DNA of 64,000 bases from NCBI GenBank assembly GCA_964016885.1, contig OZ024762.1:22630001-22694000 (forward strand). Direction: 5' to 3'. The position numbers were made by a program, and so were the translations under genes. Shown here piece after piece: positions 13,323 through 62,419 of the stretch (position 1 is its first letter; the number at the start of each line of letters is the position of its first letter). Source of the stretch: Eledone cirrhosa (lineage: Eukaryota). The notes below the pieces were generated by a model. That model did not search any database. It was not told the origin of the DNA and was given only the letters and a program-made list of their open reading frames with translations.

Positions 13323-14087
13323 TAATGATCTTATGTTGTTTATTACATAACTTATAAGCTCTGTAACCTACATAGAGCACTCTTTTTTCCTGGACCTTTC
13401 CGACGGAATCACTTCATTCATACATACATATATATATACATATATATATACATATTTATATATATATATATATATACAAATATATATATATACACATACA
13501 CATATACATATATTGTATATATCTACATAAATATATATATATATATATACATACATATACATATGCATACACACATACCACGCACATACCCTCATCGACC
13601 TTTATAATATATATATATATATATGTATGTATACATTCAAAATAGGGGGCTGTTCACAGGGCAAAGACTGTGGAAAGATCAACGGAGAGACCCATCTCTT
13701 CAGTCACTCTCCAGGTATTACTATAATTTCGGCTCATTAAGATTGATACATTGATTCCAGTGCACATTTCAACAAAAATATATTTGTTCAATTCCGTTAG
13801 CTTTCCTCATATCTTCTCCGTGGTAATGCATGTATGTGTATGTTTTGTGTGCATGTGTATGTTTTGTGTGTATGTTTTTTTTTTTGTGTATGTGAGGGGT
13901 GTGTGTGCTTTCGTGTTTGAATGTTTATTTCAATATCATTATTATATAAGATAAAAATGTGGAATTAATATATTAATGATCTGCGCTTGGCCCTTGCCCT
14001 GTAGCTGTAACCTCGCTTCAGTAAATATAAGCAAAAACAGAAGCACCACGAACAATGTTTCTACTTTAGACAGGAGACAAATTATTG

Positions 14088-14640
14088 GAGGTACGTAGCC
14101 CAGTGGTAAGTGCGTTGCATTACTTGAAAGGCTTGAGTTTATATGTTCGTAAGCAAACCATTTCACCGGAAAATGTGTACCAGCCGTAGCTGGGTGTTTA
14201 ATCCTGCGTTCGCCTAGTGGTGAGTATGTTCGATTTATGATCATAACCTTTGGGTTCGAATCCTAGACCCGTGTGTATGTGTTGTGTTCTTCAGCAAAAC
14301 ACTTCATTTGACGTTGCTCCACTATACTCAACTGAAAATTAATACCAGCTATAGCTGGGAGTTTAACCCTGCGATGTACTGGCGGTGAGCGTCTTGGATT
14401 TATTATCATAGCGTTGTGGGTTCGATTCCTAGACAGGGTTTTGTGTTGTGTTCTTGAGCAAAACACTTCATTTCACGTTGCTCCAGTATAGTCAACTGGA
14501 AAAGAGTATCAGCAGTAGTTGGGAGTTTAAACCTACGATGGACTGGTGTCCTGTCTATGGGAGTGTCTTGTCACTTAACGCGGCGGAAATAGTTATTAAC
14601 ATCGGCTTGACGAGCCTATGGGCTCGGGACATACTTTAGA
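14088..14640 (+). mobile_element. tRNA-derived SINE cluster with internal duplications (CORE-like middle)
   Basis: A-box-like GTAGCCCAGTGGTAA, B-boxes GGTTCGAATCC/GGTTCGATTCC, TGTGTTCTTGAGCAAAACACTT, and a 3' part GATGGACTGGTGTCCTGTC shared with 59300-60050. Confidence 0.7.
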
Positions 14641-14789
14641 GTTATAGGCAGGTGACGTAATGACAGATTCATTAGAACGTTGAATGGAATACTTTGCGGT
14701 ATTCGTTCCGGCTTTCCCTTCGATCCCACCGAAGTCTACTTTCCCTCGGATCCCGCCGAAGTCAACTTTGTCTTTCATCCTTTCAAGGT

Positions 14790-15730
14790 CATCATCTTCT
14801 TCGTCGCCCACTTATTCCTTAGAGGGTCGTGGTGGCAGAGTCCTCAAACACTCCTTCCAGTGGGTCCTGTCAGAAGCAACCGTCTCCAACTGATCTGGCT
14901 GGATCCCCAAGCGTGACCAGCCAAGCTCATACATGTTATCCAACCATCTTGCTTGGCCTCTACCCCTCAGTCTCTTGCCGGTTGGTTTTGCCTGGAAAAT
15001 CATTCCAGCGATTCTTCCCTGAGACATTCTAACCATATATCCATAGTAACGGAGCTGTGACCTTTCAATTCGGAGAATTAGTGGCTCTACCTGGAGTGAC
15101 TCTCTCATCTCCAAGCTACAAATCTCTCCAGTGATTCATTCCTGAGACATTCTAACCACATGTCCATAGTATCGGAACTGTGGTCTCTCAATTCGGAGAA
15201 GTAGCAGCTCTACCTGGAGTGATTCTCTGATCTCTAAGCTACACATCTCTCCAGTGATTCATTCCTGAGACATTCTAACCACATGTCCATAGTATCGGAG
15301 CTGTCATCTCTCAATTCGGAGAAGTAGCGGTTCGGATTGACATCTGATTTTCGAGTTACGCACTTTATCGAGTAACATCACTCCAAAGACTCTTCGGACG
15401 AACCCCATTTCGTCCGCCTGTATTTGCGATCGTATTCTTTTAGTCATTACCCAAGATTCATGACCATAAGTAAGGGTTGGCACGAAAATCAAATAGAAGG
15501 GAACGAGTTTAGCTTTTACGCCTTCCCCCTTTCTTCTGATTAATGAATGCTGAAGCTAGTGGATTACTGCATCAGCTTTTGCTAGTCTTCCACTTAATTC
15601 AGCCTCCTGCTTTCCATAAGTCGTGCACACGGCCCCGAGATACTTGAACTTCTCTACCTGCTTCAGTGGAACTCCATTCATACGTAGAGTGCACCTTTCA
15701 AGGCCAACAGTTAAAATGTAGCAGACTAAT
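14790..15730 (-). mobile_element. RTE-clade LINE 3' remnant with tandemly duplicated internal segment
   Basis: Minus-strand peptides VEKFKYLG, PTLTYGHESW, QLRYYGYMVRM, GKRLRGRGQARWLD typical of the RTE RT C-terminus; ~120 bp block repeated at 15010-15330. Confidence 0.85.
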
Positions 15731-15766
15731 TCTGGGGTCATTTTCAACTCTCTATAAGTCCTGTAA

Positions 15767-15987
15767 CCCTTTAGCATTTACATTACTCTATATTTACTAT
15801 TGTATTTTTGTGGTAAAGACTTTATCTTGCATAATTATCTCACATAATATCGAATCTAGAAGATTTTGATGTTATTTATTTTGAGAACAATATGTTAACA
15901 TCGATATGAGTAGCCGGTTACAGCTGGTTTGAACAGAGAGAGATGAGGTAATTCTGGCCGGATATAGCCGGTTTAAATGCTAAAGGT
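15767..15987 (-). mobile_element. piggyBac-type MITE, inverted copy of 8889-9109
   Basis: Same TIRs, TTAA at 15988-15991, reverse-complement internal similarity. Confidence 0.8.
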
Positions 15988-16639
15988 TTAATCTCTCTCG
16001 GGACGAAATCTGATGAGATTACTTCAGACCAAAACGGTGAAGGGCTCTGACAGGTTTCAGGTTTAAAATATGCCGGTTTAAAAAATATGCCGGTTTAAAA
16101 GAGACGCAGTATGTCTCAATGACACTCCTATGTCACAAGGTATTACAGATCTATACATTCATATAATTTAGGCACAGGGTATTTCATAGTTCAGAGAGCA
16201 AACGAGACTAATTTAAAGTGAGTACTTAATATATATTAATAGGTGTAATCTCTAGAGAACCTATACTAAGGTTGTGTGTGAATGGGTTGTTATTTATGGG
16301 AGTGTGTGAGCAACTATGTGAGTATGCATGTCTATGTGTCTATCTGTGCTAGATTTTGTGTGTCTGTGTGTCTGAGTTCGTGTGTGTGTGTGTGTGTGCC
16401 TGTGTTTATGTATGAATATGAACATGTATGTATGAATATGAGCATGTATATGTTTATGTGTGGGCATGTGTGTGTTTATGTCAGTGACAAAGAGAGAGAA
16501 AGTGGGTGAGACAGAGAGACCGACAGACAGACAGGCAGACAGAAAGACATACATTGTGCGTGTCCCTGTGTGTGTGTGTCTGTGTTTGTGTCTGTGTTTG
16601 TGTGTGAGTGTGTATGTGTTTTGTCTGTGACAAAGGCAG

Positions 16640-24759: not shown

Positions 24760-26795
<2,036 letters not shown>

Positions 26796-26799
<4 letters not shown>

Positions 26800-27111
26800 T
26801 AAGTTATGTCCATAGAATCATTTGATAATATATATACACCATTTCCTCTCCCAATTAGCATAATTAACCACATAAAAAAATCAATTAGACCAGGCTATAA
26901 GAATAAAGGCTCCTATGAAGAAATATTTCATAAATAAACGAAAGCAGCCTCTTCGCGGCCGACCGCAATATAATATTTACCCAACATTTCAATAGCATGT
27001 AGAAATAGACTAAATATACCGTCAACCATACACAATTAGGTATAAATTTAAAGTTAGAAGAAATGCGTACACTCTTTTATCAAATGATTCTATGGACATA
27101 ATTTATGATAT
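26796..27111. mobile_element. ~315 bp element with ~50 bp terminal inverted repeats
   Basis: TATCATAAGTTATGTCCATAGAATCATTTGATAA / TTATCAAATGATTCTATGGACATAATTTATGATA. Confidence 0.6.
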
Positions 27112-27224
27112 ATTGTTCTGATTATTTAATTTATTAATTCTTCATTCAGCCACATCGTGAACGGTTGCCACATATATATCTGTTAATTTGTGTATATGTA
27201 AATCTTTATATTATATATATATAT

Positions 27225-27346
27225 ATAGGAACGAGTAGGACCCCGACGGCTGAGCTCAAGCCGTTTCGACGGCTAAATCTGGACGCGTCCAGATTTAGCC
27301 GTCGAAACGGCTTGAGCTCAGCCGTCGGGGTCCTACTCGTTCCTAT
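27225..27346. repeat. Perfect 122 bp palindrome (61 bp arms, no spacer) made of two hammerhead 3' halves
   Basis: Centre GGACG|CGTCC; each arm reads GAAA-CGGCTTGAGCTCAGCCG-TC-GGGG. Confidence 0.9.
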
Positions 27347-27443
27347 TACCCACTCTACTACCCTAAGTATTGAGTACTTTGGTGCGTTATGGTCCACCTG
27401 GTTCCTTACCACATTTCCTTTGTTATATATATATTTATATATA

Positions 27444-27522
<79 letters not shown>

Positions 27523-27526
<4 letters not shown>

Positions 27527-27905
27527 ACACTAACCAAGAAACTCACTCAGATGGTGGATGGGTGCTACACGAGAATGCTGAGGATGGCTCTGAACATTAA
27601 TCAGTATACACTGAGGATGAAAAACTCAGAGCTGCATGGGAGCCTCCAAAAGTCAGCTCAAAAGTGACACAGAGGAGACTGAGGTTAGCTGAACATGCTC
27701 ACCGGCATCCAGAGTTGACATTGCACTCAGTGCGCCTGTGGGAGCCCCTACATGGACACACTTGAAGAGGAAGACCAAGGTTAACGTATGTTGATGCCCT
27801 AAGGACAGACACTGGTCTGTTGGAGACGTAGGACATGGCAGCGATAATGAGGGACAGAGACCGCTGGAGAGAACTCGTCCATGGATCTCGGGAATTTTAC
27901 CCGCC
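27523..27905 (+). mobile_element. RTE/RTE-X-like LINE 3' remnant
   Basis: [25 protein letters not shown] followed by frameshifted RRLRLAEHAHRHPE and RGRPRLTYVD. Confidence 0.75.
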
Positions 27906-28005
27906 CTAGATATATATATATATATATATAAACACACATGCAGGCATTATATATATACATACATATATATCTAGAAGTGGTAACACAACAGTTAGTTCAC
28001 CATAC

Positions 28006-28043
28006 CGAGAACAATTGTTTCACCTTAGCGGATCCTCAGCTCG
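28006..28043 (-). ncRNA. Minimal hammerhead motif inside a fold-back element (27976-28090)
   Basis: Minus strand: CGAG-CTGAGGA-tCCgctaaGGt-GAAA-C AATT G-TT-CTCG; the opposite arm carries the 3' half GAAA-C ACTT G-TC-CTCG. Confidence 0.7.
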
Positions 28044-28201
28044 TGAAACACTTGTCCTCGGTATGGTGAACTAACTGTTGTGCAACCACTACTACCTCAC
28101 TCGTCTCATGGACTGAGTGCTCTACCACTACGGATATTACCTTCCAGTGTTCTACCACCACATATATATTTATATATATATATATATATATATAAAAACA
28201 C

Positions 28202-28326
<125 letters not shown>

Positions 28327-28361
28327 ACACATGCAGATCATTATATATATACATACATATT

Positions 28362-28578
28362 GTGAAGGCGTGTGGCTGAGTGGTTTGAGATTTGGATTCG
28401 TAATCGTGAGTTTGTGAGTTCGATTCCAGAAGCAGGTGATGTGTTATGACCTTGAGCAAGACACTGTATTTCACGTTGCTGCTTCTACCTGGAGTTGCGA
28501 CCGATAGATAGTATTAGCAATTGGAAAGACCAATGGAAACATTCTTTCCTCGGTCCGATTTGACGAAAGTCGATTGTT

Positions 28579-28583
<5 letters not shown>
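28362..28583 (+). mobile_element. Chimeric tRNA-SINE head fused to an unrelated 3' segment
   Basis: GGCGTGTGGCTGAGTGGT (A-box), GAGTTCGATTCC (B-box), CCTTGAGCAAGACACT; second copy reversed at 45387-45601. Confidence 0.7.
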
Positions 28584-60663: not shown

Positions 60664-60674
<11 letters not shown>

Positions 60675-60767
60675 GAATAGCTTTCACCGTATTGTTGTTC
60701 TAAACCCCATTATCAGTCTAAAATTTCTTTAGTCAAAAATACGGTGAAAGCTATTCTATTTTCTAAT
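60664..60767. repeat. Inverted repeat, ~29 bp arms
   Basis: ATTAGAAAATAGAATAGCTTTCACCGTATT / AATACGGTGAAAGCTATTCTATTTTCTAAT. Confidence 0.8.
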
Positions 60768-61149
60768 TTCAAACCTGTTCACTGTTTCAAAACATACTTA
60801 CTTGTCATATATATATATATTTATACATACATACACACATACATATATACATATATACAGCTACTTGTTTATCTACCAAGCCTCACACAATCTAATTCAG
60901 TGCACAAAGAGCAGAATTATCTTCGAATAATTTCTTTAAAACGTAACGCAAGTTTCTTAAAAACATGTTTGTTTTTATTGATTAAATTAATAGAAAGTAA
61001 CAAAAAAATTTGCTCTGTTTTAATCCGTAAGTAATTTCGGATTATAAATAATGTTATCTAATTTTAATTCTTACTCGGAGAATTTTAAATACCTAAATAA
61101 CATTGCATATATTTCGTACAATATATTGGAAGAAATATATGAAAAAAGC

Positions 61150-61880: not shown

Positions 61881-62094
61881 ATTACTATCATCCCCACTAT
61901 CAGCTTCATAATCACTACTATCATCAACACCACCACCTCCACCATCAACATCGTCGTCATCACTACCACCACCACCACCACAACCATCAACACAACCACC
62001 ACAACCATCAACACAACCATCATCACCACCATTATCACCATCATGATCATCGTTTATATCTTCGTCGCCGTCGTCGTTATCGTTCATTTGTTCC

Positions 62095-62419
62095 TCAACT
62101 TACCTCCCCCCACCAAAGCTTTAAAGACCGCTGGTACAACCATCGCAATTCATTCAATAAGGAGGCCAAAAGGAAAAGCATGACTCTCTCCGACCTGATC
62201 TGGAAGCTTAAGCTAGACAGGACCCCGTACTCTCTGGCCTGGTACATAATCAGGAAAGTACCACCCGATAAATGGGGATCTTGTATATGCAAACTATGCC
62301 TGAACGAGACCCTCGAGATACTAAGAGGTGGAAGCGGACTGATAAACCTCAGAACCGACTTCTTCGGGACATGCAGACACCTTAGAGCCGGGACCTTCCT
62401 CAAGATATATGGACAGTAG
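62095..62419 (+). pseudogene. C-terminal part of a Penelope-like GIY-YIG endonuclease
   Basis: FKDRWYNHRNSF..TLSDLIWKLK..W.II..CKLCLNETLEI..LINLRTDFFGTCRH matches the PLE endonuclease pattern FKxRxxNH / LSxxIWxLK / CxLCLxE / CRH. Confidence 0.8.

Follow-up and report, generated by a model that had tools for sequence, protein, structure and literature searches.

What produced the perfect 122-bp palindrome at 27225-27346 of the window, i.e. of the 64,000 nucleotides of Eledone cirrhosa DNA analysed here, and to what kind of element does it belong? Scanning the window centre by centre confirmed the palindrome as exact (61+61 bp, zero spacer), as a sequence-only reading of the locus had claimed. 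It is the only long perfect palindrome outside microsatellites, the runners-up having non-(TA)n arms of 22 and 10 bp. Folding yields a single hairpin (z-score -22.4), and none of 200 shuffles was equally stable. The succession of GAAA, a 5-bp stem, GTC and GGGG, which had been interpreted as two hammerhead 3' halves sharing one stem II, is likewise found on both strands as stated. The "stem II" itself comes from the mirror copy alone; since any palindrome pairs with its own mirror, this pairing is no separate feature.

The palindrome forms the two arms of a 196-bp element

The palindrome is part of a larger object, a 196-bp element (27228-27423) between (TA)n runs, in a window of animal DNA with many simple repeats. 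In this order it comprises two 58-bp arms, the first inverted and the second direct, and an 80-bp one-sided tail. Its features (copy 1) and its two further copies in the window are:

27212..27227, left (TA)n target run
27228..27285, minus strand, inverted 5'-truncated arm, starting at the left (TA)n run and ending at the internal 3' end point (site 1); 58/58 matches to the right arm
27285..27286, two central filler bases at the junction, differing from the upstream consensus of the arm-tail family
27286..27343, plus strand (inferred sense strand), direct arm, the 5'-truncated 3' end of the element
27304..27326, plus strand, hammerhead-like 3' half (GAAA, 5-bp stem, GTC), mirrored at 27245-27267
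27344..27423, plus strand, one-sided 80-bp tail, bounded at site 2 by the right (TA)n run; 76/78 identical in copy 2
27424..27524, right (TA)n target run
45216..45372, plus strand, copy 2, left arm and tail as in copy 1, direct arm shortened by 39 bp, between (TA)n runs
56996..57052, plus strand, copy 3, lone arm ending at (TA)n, with neither tail nor inverted partner, GAAA changed to GAAT

Copy 2 has the same left end as copy 1 and another centre; the two differ at 3 positions in 61 bp of arm and at 2 in 99 bp of the right part. The arm of copy 3 stops at (TA)n where the inverted arms stop, and A+T-rich sequence lies upstream of it. (TA)n flanks copies 1 and 2 on both sides and copy 3 at the 3' end only. 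In the arm-tail family the 3' end is fixed at two points, 27343-27346 and about 27423, which lie 80 bp apart, and the 5' ends vary. The 196-bp insert codes for nothing, and a 131-aa frame spanning it had no Pfam match. The insert is most likely not a working ribozyme; its transcript, if made, would form a hairpin of 58-61 bp.

A young high-copy family with many junctions

Among 21 public sequencing runs listed, 16 contain some of the family's words and 6 contain half or more; none of the runs listed as containing them is an RNA run. Four (X1, X4, X7 and X19) were compared at 80% likeness, leaving out X2, X3, X5, X6 and X8-X16, the last nine having under 5 words or a small share. X1 yielded 19,203 contigs of the arm-tail family, 8,801 of them at 95% identity or above; as X1 is possibly the source sample, its 13/13 words do not count as independent support. 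The RAD run X19 holds 25,411 family reads among 12.5 million, and X4 and X7, which carry other species labels, hold 3 and 4 family contigs, respectively. The family is young (cf. the X1 contigs) and of high copy number, tens of thousands by a rough estimate (3 in 64 kb; 0.2% of the reads of one RAD run).

The palindrome's own centre is rare in this family, with less than 1% of the arm depth: X19 has 55-59 reads at the centre (27284-27286) versus about 14,500 on the arm, and X1 has a depth of 11,451 versus 1.45 million. The tail reaches about 14,000-16,000 in X19. In the same run 7,001 reads end at 27295, which we read as the AATT cut site of the library, without biological meaning. The loose ends 5' of 27287 (38 contigs in X1, 2 in X4 and 1 in X7) agree on an A+T-rich stretch that finishes in TTTA, and the two central bases of the palindrome are therefore filler; copy 3 has TTA at this position.

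Inverted 5'-truncated copies joined head to head are found in copies 1 and 2 and in 14 of the 15 joints listed (55 in all). In these 14 the left arm (27264-27284) is connected to a point within 27304-27380, in nine cases at 27340 or beyond and hence close to site 1 or in the tail itself, although 10 of the 14 are flagged "between: not known" and most sides are shorter than 30 letters at 80% likeness, so that some may be repeat artefacts. The filler between the joined arms varies, and one filler row (27271 to 27345) has templated upstream letters that run past the palindrome centre.

Both arms carry a rare allele, T at 27294 and A at 27277, whereas 99.3% and 99.2% of the X1 depth as well as copy 2 carry the other base. 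The arms thus share one template, or one arm was copied from the other. This upholds the origin in retrotransposition that had been proposed for the locus, but not the proposed cause, a self-complementary stem II, since the palindrome centre is one of many junctions and is thus not fixed by such a stem. Copies 1 and 2 agree in the exact base at which the left arm ends, and two X1 contigs have the same joint with different fillers. This recurrent end suggests a hot spot or a common palindromic precursor, and goes beyond the simple model discussed below.

Pattern scans of genome contigs and viral contigs gave 0 matches. One scan of metagenomes also gave 0, and another gave 3, all chance matches of 21-22 bp in contigs of 62-70% G+C. 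No true relative and no parent reverse transcriptase (RT) or GIY-YIG frame linked to the arm-tail family emerged from these scans.

The same layout in unrelated (TA)n-bounded segments

The combination of terminal arm, inverted copy and one-sided tail is seen in 8 of the 52 complex segments that (TA)n runs delimit in the window; 940 shuffles of the 47 shorter segments never produced it. The eight segments represent seven families without cross-similarity, the six further ones being located at:

10545-10832
12279-12680, with a CTGANGA...GAAA core in both arms
26798-27211
27958-28170, with a CTGANGA...GAAA core
57238-57458
60666-60806

The arms of the eight segments measure 21-161 bp and total 910 bp (1.4% of the window), the tails measure 41-104 bp, and the spacers 0, 13, 19, 35, 36, 36, 101 and 248 bp; the zero-spacer palindrome is the end of a spacer continuum. 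CTGANGA...GAAA cores such as those at 12279-12680 and 27958-28170 are a hallmark of PLEs. Motifs of the six other arm families matched no cephalopod Penelope-like element (PLE) in the supplement of PMC8557442.

Several neighbouring features were recorded in addition. The element at 12279-12680, each of whose arms holds a hammerhead core, forms an imperfect palindrome of 356 bp. Two 115-bp one-armed copies of the 10545 family, each an arm stub with tail, lie at 25376-25490 and 26551-26665 within a 2-kb (TA)n tract and are 97-99% identical. An endonuclease remnant at about 62080-62419 resembles, by eye, the C-terminus of Hydra-type PLEs, with no Pfam match. Downstream, as far as 63730, come 1.2 kb of 3' sequence, in which a hammerhead core (63632) precedes (TA)n by about 100 bp. 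Remnant and core together suggest that (TA)n-ending PLEs are present. Tandem 328-bp repeats at 46719-47750, carrying CTGANGA and, 44 nt later, GAAA on the minus strand (46858, 47615), are possibly retrozyme-like units.

In a pair of direct repeats (56486-56711 and 57516-57742) the minus strand carries minimal hammerhead cores at 56602 and 57641, with AATAAA after them; copy 3 and the 57238 element sit between the two repeats. A broken LINE at 33700-38600 includes an endonuclease (PF03372, E 2.4e-6) and a weak RT match, and the 385-bp remnant between (TA)n runs at 27525-27909 reads like what we take to be the C-terminus of an RTE-type LINE. Two (TA)n-flanked copies of a tRNA-type SINE, presumably similar to octopus SINEs, lie at 28352-28580 and 45389-45601. 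The SINE 3' end shares its last 5-7 bases before (TA)n with site 1 of the arm-tail family, TCGTTCC(TA)n, but a homology between arm and SINE was rejected as not significant, its score being reached in 485, 115 and 299 of 3,000 shuffles.

Discussion

Based on these findings we consider it likely that the element is a stump-sized insertion, with ends joined head to head, of a high-copy PLE-type retroelement family that targets (TA)n. As inferred from published PLE work, the protein of the element would cut (TA)n DNA, and reverse transcription would begin at two fixed sites of the RNA, 27343-27345 and 27423. Both copies would stop early and host repair would join the truncated ends head to head. 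In copy 1 both would have stopped at the same base, 27287, and this stop, together with two filler bases, would yield a palindrome without spacer.

Insertions with an inverted 5'-truncated copy and a tail at one end are described for PLEs, with a bias for (TA)n in Naiads and Hydra (Craig et al. 2021, PMC8557442). The elements of that study share with the arm-tail family the (TA)n targets, the strong 5' truncation, the inverted copy at the 5' side and the tail at one end only, but the tail is 80 bp here versus 30-40 bp in the PLEs published there, and the cephalopod Naiads are presented as long-dead remnants, whereas the arm-tail family is young. One 8-mer of the family, GTCGAAAC, is shared with Naiad_Obim and Naiad_Ovul, whose 3' ends account for 2 of its 3 matches in the supplement of PMC8557442. 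The other arm and tail motifs tested, of 8-11 letters, are found in none of the cephalopod PLE consensus sequences of this supplement, whose line breaks may hide matches, and by such short motifs the arm-tail family appears to be none of the cephalopod PLE families named there.

The Penelope elements of the rotifer Adineta vaga (Arkhipova et al. 2013, PMC3846280) are similar in having inverted pLTRs, palindromes at the junctions (18 and 38 bp), solo pLTR units and an optional tail. In that work palindromes are described as common at inverted junctions of rotifer PLEs, and self-priming is proposed as their origin. Target duplications of 8-10 bp are visible in A. vaga (PMC3846280), whereas here they are hidden by (TA)n, and the palindrome is longer and perfect here, which we ascribe to the copying of little but the ends.

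Biochemical work on Poseidon_Ac (Frangieh et al. 2024, PMC11167929) adds that a purified PLE protein acts in vitro on A+T-rich DNA, cutting and extending both strands, that two RT start sites define the tail, and that insertion by the purified protein needs no hammerhead cleavage; inverted junctions were not reconstituted in the experiments described. Poseidon_Ac has a canonical hammerhead and a tail of 30-40 nt (PMC11167929), whereas the family studied here combines an 80-bp tail with no canonical hammerhead. Non-LTR retrozymes are likewise short non-coding repeats related to PLEs (bioRxiv 10.64898/2026.07.22.740005; PMC7229834), but they are described as tandem, with a complete type I hammerhead per unit (bioRxiv 10.64898/2026.07.22.740005), whereas the copies here are dispersed, inverted and without a complete core, and by these features the family is no non-LTR retrozyme. 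The element behaves like a PLE stump insertion, its membership of the PLEs being probable rather than firm, as the scans reached no parent frame and the tail is longer than those published.

As to the origin of the inverted arm, we lean towards priming from the second DNA end, while fold-back of the first cDNA is a serious contender that we rate somewhat lower. Priming from both DNA ends agrees with joints that start at or past site 1. Fold-back with subsequent central deletions also fits the joints, and it would better explain the left-arm end shared by copies 1 and 2 and by two X1 contigs. Longer palindromes that lost central sequence once inserted would likewise show varied joints, which counts against the PLE reading.

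What, then, is the hammerhead-like motif? That the arm retains a degenerate, vestigial half-core from the 3' end of a PLE is a reasonable possibility, if short of our expectation, and would be compatible with a PLE stump. GAAA followed by a stem of at least 5 bp and TH arose in 38 of 20,000 shuffles of the arm, a rate too low to be trivial for a 61-mer. Locally, folding favours stem III (pair probability 0.82 versus 0.18 for the rival hairpin at 27297-27312). The half-core motif lies about 40 nt before site 1, and the cores of the two core-bearing families lie, by eye, at 45-85 nt. Naiads are described as having no canonical hammerhead, and a half core is given for some of them, Naiad_Ovul being one (PMC8557442). 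An upstream loose end in X19 (1,246 reads, agreement 0.82) resembles, by eye, the half-core region of the octopus Naiads given there. Together with the arm, it shows several short motifs in the same order as in the octopus Naiad 3' UTR (by eye and from unphased variants), the shared motifs lying about 110 nt from the 3' end versus 123 nt in the octopus Naiads.

The stronger version, in which two hammerhead 3' halves share stem II, intact copies carry CCCC-CTGANGA upstream and fold-back at stem II removed this part, is improbable, and we give no better chance to a functional hammerhead parent with its core next to stem II. CTGANGA is absent inside all three copies even at one mismatch, the near-matches at 27118 and 27145 sitting in a neighbouring element, and it is also absent, at up to one mismatch, from 56850-57060 around copy 3. 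The upstream loose ends in X1, X4 (30 letters) and X7 (23 letters) contain neither a core nor a partner for stem II. There is therefore no backing for a hammerhead stem II at the centre, or for a CTGANGA half displaced by the mirror copy, as longer copies run 5' into A+T-rich sequence without such a partner over 23-30 letters, and the search for copies with CTGANGA upstream yielded none among the three loci and loose ends of at most 30 letters. As 30 of a median of 76 letters are displayed, a more distant core is conceivable. A stem-II partner is absent from copy 3 and the main loose ends, and one X19 subfamily end (unphased) may hold a short one.

Copy 2 breaks stem III and copy 3 breaks GAAA, leaving GAAA, stem III and the NUH site intact in one of three loci (copy 1), and two substitutions within stem III, 27320 A>T and 27312 T>C, are each common in X19. 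In a loose form the half-motif is found at 41 places in the window, and Rfam gave 0 gathering-level matches and 53 weak ones to generic hairpin (miRNA) models, none of them to a ribozyme. Junctions between inverted arms are not confined to the palindrome centre either. A type III hammerhead using the tail was rejected as no core lies downstream.

A non-autonomous DNA transposon, either a 116-bp palindromic MITE with a TA duplication or a Helitron2/Helentron-like element with asymmetric inverted repeats, its centre eroded by deletions, is also quite unlikely, even though the palindrome has TA at both flanks and the left arms of copies 1 and 2 finish at the identical base. Like transposase sites, a 6-7-bp motif occurs in the arm three times and in both orientations, and the tail holds a small hairpin. 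All eight two-armed segments of the window, however, are asymmetric, with none having both arms terminal. One-armed copies exist in this family (copy 3) and in another (25376-25490 and 26551-26665), and arms run on into a longer template past the palindrome centre. Helitron2 repeats are 8-15 bp long, i.e. shorter than the window arms of 21-161 bp. By the features examined the element is no symmetric MITE (TIR transposon), since the right arm lies 80 bp from the end, the centre varies and a one-armed copy exists.

An assembly or library artefact (fold-back chimera) is very improbable. None of the contigs and reads listed spans the whole stretch or shows the exact centre in an independent individual, but missing spanning contigs are expected, as de Bruijn contigs stop at perfect hairpins, and the palindrome copy lacks the AATT site where RAD reads probably start. 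Moreover, the palindrome ends exactly at the family boundary, with different flanks beyond it, copy 2 has the same boundaries with another centre, and three X1 contigs cross the centre region with other junctions.

Biological significance

The head-to-head layout of PLE insertions is already known, and the arm-tail family is most likely an additional member; we found no paper on it, and it may already carry a name in Repbase or Dfam. The single locus matters little, being one of tens of thousands of copies that has a zero-length spacer by chance. Such stumps are useful because, within 200 bp, they display the junction as well as the two RT start sites. Repeat annotators would probably label them, wrongly, as MITEs. 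A genome-wide table of the junctions could separate second-end priming from fold-back, a question of PLE biology, and probe the supply of ADAR substrates.

An unusually high dsRNA potential and hyper-editing are reported for Octopus bimaculoides in PMC5625713, whose account leaves the source repeat unnamed. More speculatively, and less likely than not, stumps of many PLE families that target (TA)n may be one of the main intrinsic sources of near-perfect hairpins in this genome and, if the host is an octopus as its SINEs would suggest, may explain much of that dsRNA potential and hyper-editing. The arm-tail family would then be a young relative of the Naiads, left with a vestigial hammerhead half and an 80-nt tail, and its joints near site 1 would record two-site priming on one RNA.
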